Source: a virus. From it: a stretch of 7,617 nt of DNA. The position numbers were made by a program, and so were the translations under genes. The notes under the pieces are model-generated. The model ran no database searches. It saw only the letters and a program-made list of their open reading frames with translations, and was not told the origin of the DNA. Location: the IMG/VR virus record IMGVR_UViG_3300024294_000002; one strand, given 5' to 3'. Every line of letters begins with the position of its first letter. Positions within the stretch are counted from its first letter, which is position 1. Below are positions 1,305 to 7,617 of this stretch, piece by piece.

Positions 1305-1397
1305 GTTGATTTATCGTTACGCGGCAGGCGTTACGGATATTCCGACGAACGGTTGATTTATCGTTACGTAACGGTGGCCTATTTATCGTTACGTAAC
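1305..1397 (+). repeat. Iteron array: three direct copies of ATTTATCGTTACG plus a partial copy
   Basis: GTTGATTTATCGTTACG occurs at 1305-1321 and 1352-1368. ATTTATCGTTACGTAAC occurs at 1356-1372 and 1381-1397. A partial GCGTTACGGATATT sits at 1328-1341. Copies 2 and 3 contain the perfect palindrome GTTACGTAAC (1363-1372 and 1388-1397). Confidence 0.9.
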
Positions 1398-1403
1398 TAT
1401 AAT
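1398..1403 (+). promoter_or_regulatory. Perfect -10 hexamer TATAAT of a candidate promoter for the 1435-2252 operon
   Basis: TATAAT directly abuts iteron 3 and lies 32 nt upstream of the ATG at 1435. The -35 is weak (TGGCCT at 1375-1380). GGAG at 1424-1427 lies 7 nt before the ATG. Confidence 0.5.
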
Positions 1404-1434
1404 TACTCCATAGCGCACGCAATGGAGCTGAGCC

Positions 1435-1668
1435 ATGAGAAACCCCGCCGAAATCTACAACATGCAAGACCTGGAACTTAACGACTCGCGCGCTAGCGCG
1501 CTGCTGCTGGCCATCGAGTCATGCAGAAAGCTGGGCGAGTGGAACGAGCTTTCGCAACGGGCCTACTGGTTCCTTGCCGCGCTATGGAACGGAAACCAGG
1601 CGAGCTGGGAGAAGTGGGAAAGCCAAGTGGCGCAAGCTCTCGATGACTGCCTGGAGCGACTAGCATGA
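1435..1668 (+). CDS. Hypothetical 77-aa helical protein, first gene of the accessory operon
   Basis: The ATG has a GGAG Shine-Dalgarno sequence at a 7-nt spacing. An ATGA overlap links it to the next gene. The antisense ORFs here are Ser/Arg/Ala-rich and look non-coding. Confidence 0.65.
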   Translation: MRNPAEIYNMQDLELNDSRASALLLAIESCRKLGEWNELSQRAYWFLAALWNGNQASWEKWESQVAQALDDCLERLA

Positions 1669-2252
1669 TCGACCCTCGAGACCCAGGAACCCAACAGCTC
1701 CAGCTGGAGCAGAAGCGCGGTCGCGGCCGTCCGGCCACCGGCCAAGCTCTCAGCAATGCAGAGCGTCAGCGCCGGTATCGTGAAGCTCAAAAAGCGCAAC
1801 GTAACGAGAATATGCACAAGGACGTTGCCGAGGGTCTGCGCGCCGAGCTGGCGAAATCCGTGGAGCGGATCGAGGAGCTTGAATCCGAGCTAAAGCGCTG
1901 GAAGAAGCTGGCAACAACAGCGGAGAGAGCCAGGCAAGTAGTGGCAGAAGAGTTAACGCAACGTAACGATAATGAGCTGATGAAGCGCGTAGAGCTGGCC
2001 GAGGCCGAGCGCGACGCCATGGGCAATGAGCTGGCCATAATCAAAGCCAGGCTAGGGAATGCCCTGGAGCGCAAAACAAACATGGGATCAGCGACCTGGA
2101 GAATCCAGCGGAAAAGAGGCCGAGGCGCCTGGAAAACGCAGGCCGGGAACTACAGGAGCGAGGCGGAAGCCGTTGAGAAGCTGATGGACATGGACCCGTG
2201 CGAAGGGGCCACGTGGCGAGTAATCGAAGTTAAATCAGAGTTCGAGGATTGA
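1665..2252 (+). CDS. 195-aa putative DNA-binding protein: AT-hook-like KRGRGRP, basic helix SNAERQRRYREAQKAQR, roughly 90-aa coiled coil, small C-terminal domain
   Basis: Translation comes from the track. The RGRGRP motif is at aa 18-23. The N-x3-Q-R-x-Y-R-E basic segment is at aa 31-40. Heptad hydrophobics follow (L62, I69, L72, L76, W79, L82 and onward). A second KRGRG is at aa 150-154. Confidence 0.7.
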   Translation: MIDPRDPGTQQLQLEQKRGRGRPATGQALSNAERQRRYREAQKAQRNENMHKDVAEGLRAELAKSVERIEELESELKRWKKLATTAERARQVVAEELTQRNDNELMKRVELAEAERDAMGNELAIIKARLGNALERKTNMGSATWRIQRKRGRGAWKTQAGNYRSEAEAVEKLMDMDPCEGATWRVIEVKSEFED

Positions 2253-2462
2253 CCGGCAGGCGTCCTGCAGAGCTGCTAGGCGGGCGTCCAGGGTGGCGCC
2301 CTCTTCATCAAGCTGCGCAACGCGGCGGCGCAACTCGCGCAACTCACCGACCAACCTCCCGTAGTCCTCGACCAAGTGTTCGACGGCGCCCTGATCGTCA
2401 CGACCAGGGGCGTAGAGGCGTGCGTTACGTAACAAATATTCGGGAAGGTCTAGGACTGGCAT
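2235..2462 (-). CDS. Hypothetical 75-aa coiled-coil protein, convergent with and overlapping the 195-aa gene by 18 bp
   Basis: ATG at 2462-2460. Third-position GC is high, as in the other phage genes. The opposite-strand ORF (2249-2683) is Arg/Pro-rich and looks like noise. I see no clear Shine-Dalgarno sequence, so the start and expression are uncertain. Confidence 0.5.
   Translation of the reverse strand: MPVLDLPEYLLRNARLYAPGRDDQGAVEHLVEDYGRLVGELRELRRRVAQLDEEGATLDARLAALQDACRSILEL
2424..2433. promoter_or_regulatory. Third copy of the perfect 10-bp palindrome GTTACGTAAC
   Basis: The match to 1363-1372 and 1388-1397 is exact. It lies 27-38 nt inside the 5' end of the 75-aa ORF and about 25 bp from the dif-like site. 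Confidence 0.6.
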
Positions 2463-2486
2463 CGCATAATGGACGTTACATTAAAT
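2459..2486 (+). other. dif-like XerC/XerD recombination site 1 (attP candidate)
   Basis: GCATCGCATAA-TGGACG-TTACATTAAAT compared with E. coli dif GGTGCGCATAA-TGTATA-TTATGTTAAAT. The XerC arm matches 8/11, the central region 3/6 and the XerD arm 9/11. Confidence 0.65.
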
Positions 2487-2525
2487 CGCGCCGGGAGCTT
2501 ACCAGCATTGTCCCGACACGATTAA

Positions 2526-2553
2526 ACGTAACGTCACGGATATTATGCGAAGC
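2526..2553 (-). other. dif-like site 2, inverted relative to site 1
   Basis: The reverse complement reads GCTTCGCATAA-TATCCG-TGACGTTACGT. The XerC arm matches 9/11 and the XerD arm 7/11. GGCATCGCATAAT (2458-2470) and ATTATGCGAAGCC (2542-2554) are complementary at 12 of 13 positions. Confidence 0.5.
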
Positions 2554-2572
2554 CTTAGGCATGGGAATGGCA

Positions 2573-4038: not shown

Positions 4039-5394
4039 TTATGCCTCCAAGAAAACGCGAACAGCCGCCAATGCCCATATAGCAAGCATGACGTAATAAA
4101 GCGGGTCAAATAGATCAGCGTTCTGACAGACCCAGTTAAACGAGATAGAGCCGATAACCGGGATAGTTGCACTACCGAAGTTGCAAGAGCCGCCCGATGG
4201 CATAGCAATACCCTGAACAGCGGCGAACACTGGTGAGTTGCCGGCCCTTGAGTAGAACGAACTCAGGGATTCGCCGAAGCCTGGCACATCGTCATTACCC
4301 GGAAGGTCGCCACCGCCCTCCTGATCATCGCCATCGCCGGAGCCAGAACCGCCACCGCCGCCGCCACCGCCGCCCTTGCCATCCTCACCACATTTAGCAC
4401 CCTTGCAAGAAACTTCGACCTTAGTTGTAGTACCTGAGCCATCAGTCTTTGTAGTAGTGGTAGTAGTGGTCGTAGTAGTGGTGCAATTATCGTTGTTGCC
4501 GGTGCACTTTGTCTCCGTATGAACATCAGTCTTTACGGTAGTTTTGCCGCCATCGGCTTCGGGCGTTTCAGTTACTTCTGTTTGAATCTTTGTTTCGTCC
4601 CTCTTTGCCTCTTTGGGAAAGCACTTGACTTGCTCACTACCAGCAGGCCCAGCCGTTCCGCAATTCTGGCCCTGCTGTTCAACTTCTTTGCTAGACATAC
4701 AGTGAGAGCGGCCCTCAGCATCCTGAACATAGATACAAGGCTCCTCATTGTTAGTCACTTCTGGTTCCTCCTCGCGAACAGTTGGCGAAGAATCGACGGA
4801 AGTAGGCCCCGCCGTGCATTGCTCACCAGTAAAAAACGCACGACCAGAACAAGAGTAACGATTAGCGGAAATTGTGAAAACACACGATTGATTCAAAAAA
4901 GCAGTACACCCGCCTAGACATGCAACGTCAGGAGTAACACCCATGTTTTTTCCGCCAACATTGACAGTGTCATAAAAGCCATCACCACGGGAGCCGGTCT
5001 TACTAAAAGGCTCATCTTGACCGACTTTATCTTGGCAGGAGTTTTCTGGCTCTTGAGGCGCTTCGCATTCGCCGGTTTGAGAGTTATAAGTCGCGGGATC
5101 AGTACAGCCATCACCGTAACGTGACGTAATTTGAGAGCTATAAGTAGCGCCACTACCGAGAAGAAGAACGCATCTATAATTAGTGTCGTTTACTTTATCA
5201 ATCCGCAAAGAAAAATTAGTTGATGGTGCCAACTCCTGATTAGCCATCAAATAAGCATTACAGGCTGAAGAAATAGATGAATATTTACCTCCCAGCATTG
5301 ACCAATAATAATCCTCAGCAACTGAGGCGGCAGAATAAAAACCCGACGAAACAATCAGCAAAAACAGCGCGATATGATTTTGAAGTTTGCGCAT
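4039..5394 (-). CDS. gIII-like adsorption / minor coat protein, 451 aa from the ATG at 5394
   Basis: It has a signal-peptide-like N-terminus (MRKLQNHIALFLLIVSSGFYSAASVA/EDYYW) and a Cys-rich N-terminal region. A T10 run and a G8-SGSGDGDD linker follow, and a C-terminal TM anchor (YYVMLAIWALAAVRVFLEA). The track's TTG start at 5418 is an alternative. Confidence 0.8.
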   Translation of the reverse strand: MRKLQNHIALFLLIVSSGFYSAASVAEDYYWSMLGGKYSSISSACNAYLMANQELAPSTNFSLRIDKVNDTNYRCVLLLGSGATYSSQITSRYGDGCTDPATYNSQTGECEAPQEPENSCQDKVGQDEPFSKTGSRGDGFYDTVNVGGKNMGVTPDVACLGGCTAFLNQSCVFTISANRYSCSGRAFFTGEQCTAGPTSVDSSPTVREEEPEVTNNEEPCIYVQDAEGRSHCMSSKEVEQQGQNCGTAGPAGSEQVKCFPKEAKRDETKIQTEVTETPEADGGKTTVKTDVHTETKCTGNNDNCTTTTTTTTTTTKTDGSGTTTKVEVSCKGAKCGEDGKGGGGGGGGGSGSGDGDDQEGGGDLPGNDDVPGFGESLSSFYSRAGNSPVFAAVQGIAMPSGGSCNFGSATIPVIGSISFNWVCQNADLFDPLYYVMLAIWALAAVRVFLEA

Positions 5395-5659: not shown

Positions 5660-5891
5660 GAGATTTACCCCTTATTGCGTTAAGTAGAGCCTTGGCGCCA
5701 AGCCCCACGCTGATGGGCACGGCACAGACCGTGAACCCAGCAGCGAAGGCCTTGGCCAGGGCGGAAAAGTCCAACGTTTCGACGTTGAACGGCTCAGGCA
5801 TGGGATAAAGCATCCACAAGCCGGAACACGATGGAGCGCCGTCAGCGAGGATGCTGACAGTGCCCTGGCATACGAGCGTTACGAGATCCAT
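5652..5891 (-). CDS. Small membrane protein, 79 aa; possible minor virion or assembly protein
   Basis: The ATG at 5891 overlaps the upstream stop (TGATG). The C-terminal hydrophobic segment is FSALAKAFAAGFTVCAVPISVGLGA. The 3' end overlaps the coat start by 8 nt. Confidence 0.55.
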   Translation of the reverse strand: MDLVTLVCQGTVSILADGAPSCSGLWMLYPMPEPFNVETLDFSALAKAFAAGFTVCAVPISVGLGAKALLNAIRGKSHG

Positions 5892-6948: not shown

Positions 6949-7617
6949 GTGGCCACCAGTTGCAGATGACGCGGAACGACCGCGTGCCGGTAGAACTCAG
7001 GCACCTGGGCGGCGAAGGTGACTTCGACCTCGCGCACGTTGCGAGTGAAGGTGAAGACGGTGCCGTGGCGGGTCTGGTCGTAGGGGACCTTGATATCAAT
7101 GTTCAGCTGACGAAGGCGCGCACGGTGCGTCTTGACGGCTGATTTTTCAAAGTCGAAGGCCTGGCCAGCACGCCACAGAGACACGTATTGCGACGTGGTG
7201 TAGGCCGACTTGGTGTTCTTGCAGATGCCTTCGGCAACGAGCTGTTGCGCAATGGTCAGTTCGTCGTAGTTGGTCACTTCCAGTCGGTTGCCGACCATAA
7301 GAAACCCCTTGTGGATTTCCACTAACTTGGATTCGTCAAAAAGGCCCCAGAACGAGAGGCCCTCCCTCTTCAAAAACTCCGATCTGCACTTGATTTCGGA
7401 GCGAACCATGCCGACCGAGGCACACCAGTCGCGCAGGTCCCGGACGTACCGGAATTCGTCAGATTCTTCACCGAACGTGCGTTTCACCTTGGGCAAGAGG
7501 TGCGCGTCGAGTTCGGCGGCTTTGGCGTAGTTGCCCGGGTAAACCAAGCGGCCGGCCTTCTCGCCGCCCTTGGGTGTCCAAACGCAGGTATTGCCGTCCG
7601 GGTAAAGATAAGCAATC
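6945..7617 (-). CDS. Replication initiation protein, C-terminal part; continues upstream into 128-585 through the circular junction
   Basis: This is the same frame as the 1-585 segment. The track's 200-aa ORF (TTG at 7547) is only the window-limited piece. The stop is TGA at 6947-6945. Confidence 0.85.
   Translation of the reverse strand, partial: IAYLYPDGNTCVWTPKGGEKAGRLVYPGNYAKAAELDAHLLPKVKRTFGEESDEFRYVRDLRDWCASVGMVRSEIKCRSEFLKREGLSFWGLFDESKLVEIHKGFLMVGNRLEVTNYDELTIAQQLVAEGICKNTKSAYTTSQYVSLWRAGQAFDFEKSAVKTHRARLRQLNIDIKVPYDQTRHGTVFTFTRNVREVEVTFAAQVPEFYRHAVVPRHLQLVAT
7491..7617. repeat. Terminal overlap copy 2, identical to 1-127
   Basis: Same comparison as for copy 1. The minus-strand rep frame at 7616 is in phase with the frame starting at 585 (585-126 = 459, which is 153 codons). 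Confidence 0.9.

Follow-up and report, generated by a model that had tools for sequence, protein, structure and literature searches.

Repeated DNA words that change in step with a 195-residue protein of Pseudomonas filamentous phages are probable operators of its own gene module

Introduction

Which protein reads a short DNA word that is repeated around one small gene block of a filamentous phage, and to what end? The DNA in question, IMG/VR record IMGVR_UViG_3300024294_000002, is a stretch of 7,617 nucleotides (nt), here called the window, and is a circular 7.49-kb filamentous phage (inovirus) of Pseudomonas. Its main genes, from Rep to Zot, lie on the minus strand, and a small plus-strand module on the lysogeny side, which adjoins a dif-like attachment site, encodes proteins of 77 and 195 amino acids (aa). 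The word CGTTACG, or CGTAACG on the other strand, starts at 11 positions of the window (1315, 1329, 1362, 1367, 1387, 1800, 1962, 2423, 2527, 5115 and 5877). A first-pass annotation had listed these 11 sites against about one expected, placed nine of them within 1.2 kb and counted a 10-bp palindrome, GTTACGTAAC, three times against a chance expectation of about 0.01. It had read them as one dedicated set of cis elements that brackets both ends of the gene block and is bound by one protein, either the 195-aa protein or a 59-aa 'RHH' protein. Comparing the sequences of related elements, we find that the words are probably operators of the module's own 195-aa protein, which would most likely use them to shut off its own promoter.

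Results

Enrichment and sorting of the sites

All three counts proved exact. The 11 copies of the 7-mer stand against a mean of 0.78 and a maximum of three in 200 dinucleotide-preserving shuffles of the whole window; for the 1.23 kb of positions 1305-2533 alone, nine copies stand against 0.148 expected, with a maximum of three in 5,000 shuffles. The palindrome, at 1363, 1388 and 2424, is expected 0.01 times in the window and 0.0004 times in the region. The enrichment thus survives a dinucleotide-preserving null both window-wide and when restricted to the region, and CGTAACG ties as the commonest 7-mer of the genome. Outside the region there are two sites against 0.47 expected (P=0.078).

The sites fall into three groups (Table 1). 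Seven elements make up the cis set: the words at 1315 and 1329, the palindromes at 1363 and 1388, the intragenic words at 1800 and 1962, and the palindrome at 2424 (the listed starts 1362 and 1367 belong to a single palindrome, one to each half). The word at 2527 is part of the attachment site. Those at 5115 and 5877 are isolated, and we judged that they fit chance. Conservation and co-variation in relatives argue for the proposed dedicated set, less the three sites at 2527, 5115 and 5877, which fall outside it.

Table 1 Positions of the sites, promoter, genes and attachment site in the window
Feature	Position	Strand	Remark
Distal site 1	1309..1321	+	ATTTAT, then core CGTTACG (1315-1321); at -122 in relatives L003 and L018-L020
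Distal site 2	1329..1341	+	core CGTTACG (1329-1335), then GATATT; at -108 in relatives L003 and L018-L020
Upstream operator O2 (putative)	1356..1373	+	ATTTAT, then CGTTACGTAACG; palindrome GTTACGTAAC at 1363-1372
Proximal operator O1 (putative)	1381..1397	+	ATTTAT, then CGTTACGTAAC; palindrome at 1388-1397; abuts the -10 box
Inferred -10 box of the module promoter	1398..1403	+	TATAAT; read from sequence
77-aa gene	1435..1668	+	first of the module; variable cargo
195-aa gene	1665..2252	+	putative site-specific DNA-binding protein; alignment, AlphaFold2 model, co-variation with the DNA word
Intragenic site 1	1797..1811	-	core CGTTACG at 1800-1806, in GCG-CAA-CGT-AAC-GAG-AAT (A-Q-R-N-E-N, residues 44-49)
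Intragenic site 2	1956..1973	-	core at 1962-1968, in ACG-CAA-CGT-AAC-GAT-AAT (T-Q-R-N-D-N)
75-aa gene	2235..2462	-	coiled-coil protein (phrog_13909); convergent with the 195-aa gene, 18-nt overlap
3' boundary palindrome	2421..2435		GCGTTACGTAACAAA, with GTTACGTAAC at 2424-2433; codons 10-13 (LLRN) of the 75-aa open reading frame
Attachment site	2458..2554	-	two inverted dif-like sites (long inverted repeat)
Isolated CGTTACG in the g3p-like gene	5115..5121	-	without adjacent A/T tract, not conserved in relatives
Isolated CGTTACG near the start of an 80-aa open reading frame	5877..5883	+	without adjacent A/T tract, not conserved in relatives

Co-variation of the protein helix with the DNA word

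Relatives that have the module have kept the sites as well, so that the refuting condition set by the annotation itself, loss of the sites where the flanking genes persist, is not borne out. Firstly, two related elements, the free 7.5-kb genome L001 and the prophage L002, whose 195-aa homologs are 58-61% identical to that of the window, keep every module site at the same relative positions. Secondly, we fetched 95 loci through protein alignment, classed them by the helix that follows an invariant RGRP in the protein, and searched their upstream DNA de novo for repeated 7-mers. In class A, to which the window belongs (helix SNAERQR, 31 loci), the repeated word is CGTTACG or GTTACGTAAC, at 3.70 per kb in the module against 0.25 per kb elsewhere. 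In class B (TPAEKQR, 47 loci) it is AACGTTAC or GTAACGTTAC (4.02 against 0.02 per kb), and in class C (SDAERAR, 16 loci) CGTGACG or CGTGACGCGTCACG (5.57 against 0.33 per kb). Words of another class are rare within each class. Residue 31 follows the dominant word: asparagine goes with word A in 29 of 33 loci, aspartate with word C in 16 of 16 and proline or alanine with word B in 47 of 47, and the sole Asn31 locus with word B, L017 (TNAEKQR), has the Lys34 of class B. When the helix changes, the repeated word changes in concert at all positions. In this comparison the helix signature appears to match the repeated word almost one-to-one, and the 195-aa protein is the likely binder because a few of its residues change in step with the DNA word.

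A blind analysis of a separate set, 53 loci from a metagenome scan, repeats the rule, bringing the elements behind the co-variation to about 150. In these loci TPAEK, TAAEK and SPAEK occur with GTAACGTTAC, and SNAER and SNADR with CGTTACGT(A/T)AC, each abutting a -10 box. More distant members of the metagenome set show new arrangements of the GTNAC unit: TPAERQR with CGTAACAGTTACG abutting ATAAT, TAAERQR with CGTAACGCAGTAACG abutting TAAAAT, TNAERQK with CGTAACGCGTAACG abutting TATAAT and TAAERQA with CGTCACTGTGACG abutting ATAAT. Scans of viral contigs for the rare helix variants P0169, P0163 and P0200 gave no new loci. The family extends beyond Pseudomonas phages. A 199-aa open reading frame lies directly after Zot on the Ralstonia RSS-type element pJTPS1 (L162, 1501-2100), and a 96-aa frame lies divergent from mobC on Aeromonas caviae pKAM471_3 (L163, 1501-1791), one of the small MOBP mobilizable plasmids; matches occur in about 68 Aeromonas plasmid records, in several of them within unannotated DNA. 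In the pJTPS1 and Aeromonas members a paired GTNAC element again abuts a -10-like box, and GTNACNGTNAC encodes V-T-V-T inside the gene.

Contact of the sites with the module promoter

In all three classes a class-specific palindrome stands at the exact position of O1, directly against TATAAT(TA). We counted this arrangement in every non-redundant locus for which 450 nt upstream were available: a paired GTNAC element abuts a -10-like hexamer in 80 of the 115 loci, against one of 330 control windows from the same loci. The centre of O2 lies at about -42.5 from the inferred transcription start, and O2 is kept in class-A relatives at -75/-70 or -303/-298. The two distal sites form a pair with their A/T tracts pointing outward, and the class-C counterpart of this pair is an inverted ATTTATCGTGACG-N9/10-CGTCAC(G/A). 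The 17-nt sequence GTTGATTTATCGTTACG occurs as an exact direct repeat at 1305 (1305-1321) and 1352, with a third copy, 82% identical, at 1377. Every core, in all classes, has an A/T tract of 4-6 bp within 1-2 bp. Several copies of the site thus lie over the module's own core promoter, with further copies at most 90 nt upstream, and protein and site change together, as in an autoregulatory module. Because the proximal palindrome abuts TATAAT in all classes, the module is presumably autoregulated, and probably repressed.

Between the distal and proximal sites, CCGACGAACGG (1342-1352) is common to the upstream regions of classes A and C despite their differing operator words.

Sites inside the coding sequence

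The word also recurs inside the 195-aa gene. Read on the other strand, the words at 1800 and 1962 are ATT(C/A)TCGTTACGT, the extended word of the upstream sites; for site 2 the minus-strand reading is ATTATCGTTACGT. Site 1 falls just after the basic helix. The same intragenic place is recoded in each class: Q-R-N-E is encoded by caaCGTAACGaa in class A, (S/G)-N-V-T-D by aGTAACGTTACtgat or Q-R-Y-E by cAACGTTACGaa in class B, and K-R-D-D-Q-P-S-R by CGTGACGatcaacCGTCACGa (CGTGACG-N6-CGTCACG) in class C. At least one own-class site lies inside the gene in 25 of 25 complete class-A genes, 20 of which have at least two, and in 16 of 16 class-C genes. In 25 distinct class-A genes the residues QRN(E/D/G) are encoded by CAA-CGT-AAC in 30 of 30 occurrences, against 4.3% expected per site from codon usage elsewhere in the same genes; these sequences are related and do not count as 30 independent events. 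Third positions of the neighbouring codons vary, and GCAACGTAACGA is invariant. This contrast between an invariant core and variable flanks indicates, at the level of sequence comparison, that the QRN site is constrained as DNA.

The 195-aa protein

A word-indexed search gave 159 matches to the 195-aa protein. In an exhaustive search the number of matching 50%-identity cluster representatives was 986 at a threshold of E<=1e-3, falling to 209 at E<=1e-10. In 36 aligned sequences RGRP (residues 20-23, nt 1722-1733) is invariant, and in the window it is preceded by K17 and R18. The class-determining helix (nt 1755-1808) starts at N31 and reads SNAERQRRYRE in the window. An AlphaFold2 monomer model built on the 36-sequence alignment (mean pLDDT 84, pTM 0.38) has residues 1-30, which contain K-R-G-R-G-R-P, disordered and free of secondary structure (pLDDT 52-61). 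A single helix of residues 31-139 follows (pLDDT >90), which begins exactly at the class-determining residues, and then a small beta-alpha-beta domain (143-190). The N-terminal segment has the core of an AT-hook, Arg-Gly-Arg-Pro with basic residues in an unstructured stretch. Only the N-terminal ~50 residues always accompany the sites; the C-terminal two-thirds vary among relatives.

Sequence searches of Pfam, NCBIfam, PADLOC and PDB gave no match to the protein, PHROGs gave unknown-function families only, and a Foldseek search of the model against PDB returned nothing significant, which is unsurprising when one helix makes up most of the protein. In particular, Pfam and NCBIfam gave no RHH or HTH domain match, and the modelled N-terminus has neither an HTH nor a beta-ribbon. 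The C-terminal region (residues 143-195, nt 2091-2252) has the pattern WRIQRK...G.W.T..G.Y..E.EA...L......WRV; it is variable or replaced in many homologs and gives weak SPOR-domain matches in three members.

A model of autoregulation and the points against it

We infer the following mechanism, including physical binding, dimerisation, the assignment of grooves, the sign of regulation and a looping or roadblock role. The 195-aa protein would dimerise through its long coiled coil. The basic helix of each subunit (from Asn31, SNAERQRRYRE) would lie in the major groove over a GTNAC-type core, and the invariant AT-hook-like RGRP in the minor groove of the flanking A/T tract. RGRP is suggested as the reader of the A/T tracts because the tracts flank the cores in all classes and RGRP is invariant. 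Protein at O1 would occlude the -10 box, giving negative autoregulation of the 77-aa/195-aa operon, while cooperativity or looping would come from O2, 25 bp upstream, from the distal pair and from the two words within the gene. The palindrome at 2424, situated between the 3' end of the module and the attachment site with the end of the structural operon, might where present block transcription entering from the structural operon across the attachment site, or alternatively might affect the 75-aa gene or the attachment site itself. A dual role, activating and repressing, is possible since the -35 is weak and the second palindrome is centred near -42.5.

Several points weigh against this model. 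The classes are clades, such that the co-variation counts lineages and not independent events, and promoter, gene and sites are inherited together as a block. The putative DNA-binding domain has no Pfam, NCBIfam or PDB match, and its mode of binding is read from composition and from a monomer model with a pTM of 0.38. The promoter is read from a consensus -10 box only: this box is perfect, but its partner at -35 (TGGCCT, 1375-1380) is weak, and a consensus scan detects no complete -35/-10 pair. The site centred near -42.5 could equally mean activation. Among class-B genes 19 of 45 have no own-class intragenic site, and class-B genes hold 25 class-A words (CGTTACG) in their coding sequence, for instance at +399 from the gene start in L022-L027; these could be relics of class switching or signs of cross-recognition. 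The 3' palindrome occurs in only a third of class-A relatives (7 of 21 loci). The proposal that the sites bracket both ends of the gene block comes down, at the 3' end, to this one palindrome.

The attachment site, and replication or XerCD as the main target

A different main job for the same protein has to be weighed at the attachment site (attP), beside which the module always lies: the 195-aa protein would bind the sites, chiefly to control replication of the double-stranded form or to gate XerCD. We consider this unlikely. The attachment site consists of attP1, GGCATCGCATAA-TGGACG-TTACATTAAAT (2458-2486), and attP2, which in reverse complement is GGCTTCGCATAA-TATCCGTGACG-TTACGTTTAAT (2521-2554). 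As single-stranded DNA, on the strand with the sense of the structural genes, it forms a forked hairpin (-32.6 kcal/mol, z=-8.5) whose central region is bulged. In the prophage L002, from Pseudomonas sp. P818, a canonical dif marks the left junction (the other strand reads GGCTTCGCATAA-TGTATA-TTATGTTAAAT) and the right end retains attP1 and attP2 (L002 3040-3075 and 10800-10940). Judging by these junctions, the phage integrates at host dif; it has no integrase gene, and hence presumably uses host XerCD.

Two features of attP speak for a role there. Its arms contain ACGTTAC, and attP2 of class B holds the full GTAACGTTAC; in addition, an own-class palindrome lies 3-30 nt from attP1 in the window (where the 2424 palindrome is 25 nt before attP1) and in 9 of 14 class-C loci, the interval being that between stop codon and attP1. 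The same interval holds a word of another class in three class-A loci (word C), two class-C loci (word A) and one class-B locus (word A). Against such a role, the attP words stay unchanged across protein classes: the class-A 7-mer is found in attP of 20 of 21 class-A, 31 of 31 class-B and 4 of 14 class-C loci. Site 2527-2533, where the XerD-type arm of attP2 meets its central region, is best assigned to attP and placed outside the operator set, because ACGTTAC occurs in the arms whatever the regulator class.

As for replication, the GenBank label 'replication regulatory protein RepB' on the homolog of phage Pf 42-1 (OR621020.1) favours it, as does the presence of the family on small plasmids. 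Homologs 48-57% identical over the N-terminal 76-81 residues are carried by the P. aeruginosa inoviruses Pf 42-1 (OR621020), WX_Y and 5a-DAzarov, where they are annotated either in this way or as 'hypothetical'. We found no experimental or Pfam basis for the label. The Pfam family RepB-RCR_reg, which we take to be PF10723, matches neither the window protein nor the Pf 42-1 protein nor other members, even at E<=5. In the paper on Pf 42-1 (Evseev et al. 2023, PMC10675462) no account is given of the sites or of what the homolog does. We therefore rejected the RepB label for the family, as supported neither by Pfam nor by the describing paper. Pf 42-1 belongs to class C and has exactly this layout: its palindrome abuts TATAAT, further copies lie within the gene, and CGTGACGTCACG follows the stop codon, with attP next. 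Between Rep and the sites we saw no co-variation. The sole positional constant across the family is contact with the -10 box, a transcriptional signature, and the plasmid and Ralstonia members keep this promoter hallmark in other settings (next to mobC; directly after Zot). Autoregulation of the module promoter by the 195-aa protein thus remains the reading that we prefer.

Other candidate binders

That something other than the 195-aa protein binds the sites, be it a host transcription factor, XerD, the 59-aa RHH-like protein, the 75-aa protein or Rep, is very improbable. The core does resemble the XerD-arm junction of attP (ACGTTAC), one palindrome lies within the 75-aa gene, and an RHH protein had been proposed. 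Each phage protein was tried as binder and rejected. In L001 and L002 an Xre-type HTH repressor replaces the 59-aa protein, with the CGTTACG sites unchanged. The 59-aa protein has homologs in loci of all three classes, and thus alongside all three words (L006, L034, L047); the one in class-B L034 is 81% identical to that of the window. The 75-aa protein is equally similar in classes A and B, and its gene is absent in class C. The identity of Rep to the window's does not track the word, being 38-94% within class A and 77% in class-B L008. The other phage proteins are thereby excluded as co-varying partners. A host factor fits poorly with three words in phages that share other genes (Rep at 77% in L008, the 59-aa protein at 81% in L034), and does not explain the recoding of the phage gene itself. 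Of the two binders that had been named at the outset, the 195-aa protein is thus favoured by co-variation in sequence, and the 59-aa protein drops out.

That the repeats are non-functional, the product of local duplication, slippage or compositional chance, is effectively refuted: the two exact copies of the 17-nt direct repeat (1305, 1352) could stem from duplication, but the enrichment withstands the dinucleotide-preserving and region-restricted nulls, the sites are kept at fixed positions relative to TATAAT across relatives whose 195-aa homologs are only 40-60% identical, and all copies change in concert between classes.

Comparison with known systems

Autoregulated repressor-operator modules include lambda cI with OR, RstR of CTXphi with its ig-2 operators, and the CopG-type plasmid repressors. 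The module of the window is like these in pairing a small protein of a mobile element with sites clustered over its own promoter, one of which overlaps the core promoter, and its specificity classes resemble their immunity types. It is unlike them in that the 195-aa protein has no HTH or RHH domain and in that the sites are also recoded inside the protein's own coding sequence. Moreover, the phage has a separate repressor gene beside rep (the 59-aa gene here, Xre-type in L001 and L002), and the 195-aa module would hence regulate independently of it, as a second system.

Eukaryotic bZIP factors of the Yap/Pap1 and PAR types bind TTACGTAA. The 10-bp palindrome GTTACGTAAC that co-occurs with the 195-aa protein is also the one bound by Pap1, and in the monomer model the basic helix appears continuous with a long coiled coil, as in a bZIP. 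N31-x3-Q35-R36-x-Y38-R39 of the 195-aa protein can be set in register with N86-x3-Q90-R91-x-F93-R94 of Pap1, and its related classes use TGAC-like or TTAC-like half-sites, as do bZIP subfamilies. The yeast protein was crystallised on AGGTTACGTAACC (PDB 1GD2), and its DNA contacts include N86, Q90 and R94 (PMC3111461). Unlike a bZIP, the 195-aa protein adds an RGRP segment and its sites add A/T flanks. Neither bZIP_1 nor bZIP_2 matches the window protein at E<=0.1, and neither is among the families listed for 36 members. A comparison by hhalign with an alignment of 18 bZIP domains gave a probability of 9%, and only coiled-coil columns aligned. The 'invariant' bZIP asparagine, N31 (with R39) in class A, is proline or alanine in class B and aspartate in class C. 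The linker from helix to coiled coil varies in length, with indels and, in many members, proline, so that the fixed bZIP register is not kept. On these three counts, profile comparison, variation at residue 31 and the variable linker, we rejected bZIP membership and kept it as an architectural analogy: the 195-aa protein may work like a bZIP with an AT-hook while not being a member of that family.

The AT-hook has the core R-G-R-P, as in HMGA or in CarD of Myxococcus. The invariant R-G-R-P of the 195-aa protein likewise follows basic residues in a disordered segment, with an A/T tract near every core of its sites; it differs in being a single copy fused to a putative sequence-specific helix.

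The attP of CTXphi is XerCD-type and consists of two inverted dif-like sites in the single-stranded genome. The attP described here shares with it the inverted dif-like pair, the stable forked hairpin and integration at dif with the attP pair kept at one end; it differs in host and arm sequences, and does not co-vary with the regulator class. A regulator beside a dif-like attP, ORF13 of phiRSS0, has been described in Ralstonia phages. We rejected it as a characterised homolog: it is described as helix-turn-helix, and the pJTPS1 homolog is a different open reading frame, after Zot. A search of one library of papers found none that links GTTACGTAAC to a phage.

Genome and neighbouring genes

The genome unit is 7,490 nt, positions 1-127 of the window being repeated at 7491-7617 (terminal redundancy). 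The rep open reading frame (minus strand, start 585, 377 aa) is whole only across the junction of the ends. Because the ends repeat and rep is intact only in this way, the genome is circular. The window Rep is 94% identical to that of L003, and homologs of the 195-aa protein carry Pseudomonas species names; a megablast of the whole genome against GenBank phages gave no match. The minus strand encodes Rep (G2P_X_C domain), a gene V-like single-stranded-DNA-binding protein, a 44-aa coat protein, a 459-aa g3p-like protein, a 105-aa protein and Zot. On the plus strand lie genes of 59 and 65 aa, a 350-nt non-coding stretch, and the 77-aa and 195-aa genes. The g3p-like adsorption protein has a run of ten threonines and a glycine-rich linker, GGGGGGGGGSGSGDGDD (4330-4500, minus strand), typical of g3p domain linkers.

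In place of the 77-aa gene, L001 has an unrelated 88-aa gene, and many relatives have none; homologs of the 77-aa protein were found only in L087 and L096, both of class B. The 75-aa gene sits downstream of Zot, across attP, and integration at dif splits it from the structural operon, as in L002. The 75-aa protein might in principle pair with the 195-aa coiled coil; we found no co-variation between the two proteins.

Between the rep start (585, minus strand) and the 59-aa gene (709, plus strand), GAAATTAGTTTCTG occurs twice in exact form, at 605-618 and 623-636 (starts 18 nt apart), and in L001 and L002 this pair is replaced together with the repressor gene. The 59-aa RHH-like protein probably uses this pair as its operator, which would make it the main immunity switch of the phage. 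Two hairpins neighbour each other further downstream, GTATGG-GATT-CCATAC (1085-1100) and GTGGGGGTG-TTACAG-CACCCCCAC (1105-1128), the loop of the latter containing GTTAC. The second is kept almost exactly in relatives of different classes (L008, L021, L034); possible roles for it are those of packaging signal, minus-strand origin and terminator. An Rfam scan of the window found no RNA family.

Discussion

The general logic of a phage regulator with its operators is already known; what is new here is an undescribed, putatively DNA-binding family, its natural specificity classes and probable operators in its own gene. The analysis gives a predicted function and a DNA target to a widespread 'hypothetical protein' of filamentous phages. 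Its carriers include P. aeruginosa prophages from cystic-fibrosis isolates, and the literature labels it 'replication regulatory protein' or 'hypothetical' only. As a second regulatory module, by the attachment site and apart from the repressor beside rep, it bears on how the cargo genes of the lysogeny side are controlled.

A wider reading, which we offer tentatively as possible though short of probable, is that of an undescribed DNA-binding domain family in small bacterial replicons, among them Pseudomonas and Ralstonia inoviruses and Aeromonas mobilizable plasmids, which combines a bZIP-like helix with an AT-hook, reads a GTNAC code and has its own operator in its coding sequence. This family would comprise about 1,000 clusters at 50% identity. 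Which central base the GTNAC units have, and how the units are arranged, would depend on residues 31, 34 and 35. The operator copies that encode QRN, NVT, RDD and VTVT would mean that protein sequence and DNA site constrain each other. In phages that integrate at dif, the protein might also shield the module on the lysogeny side from the structural operon, or control XerCD recombination at attP.

Because very few residues of the protein, and one or two base pairs of the site, set the three natural classes apart, the classes offer a system for studying how specificity in DNA recognition evolves, and a possible source of small orthogonal repressor/operator pairs. An operator inside the regulator's own reading frame, rewritten from class to class, clearly illustrates how constraints on a protein and on DNA overlap.

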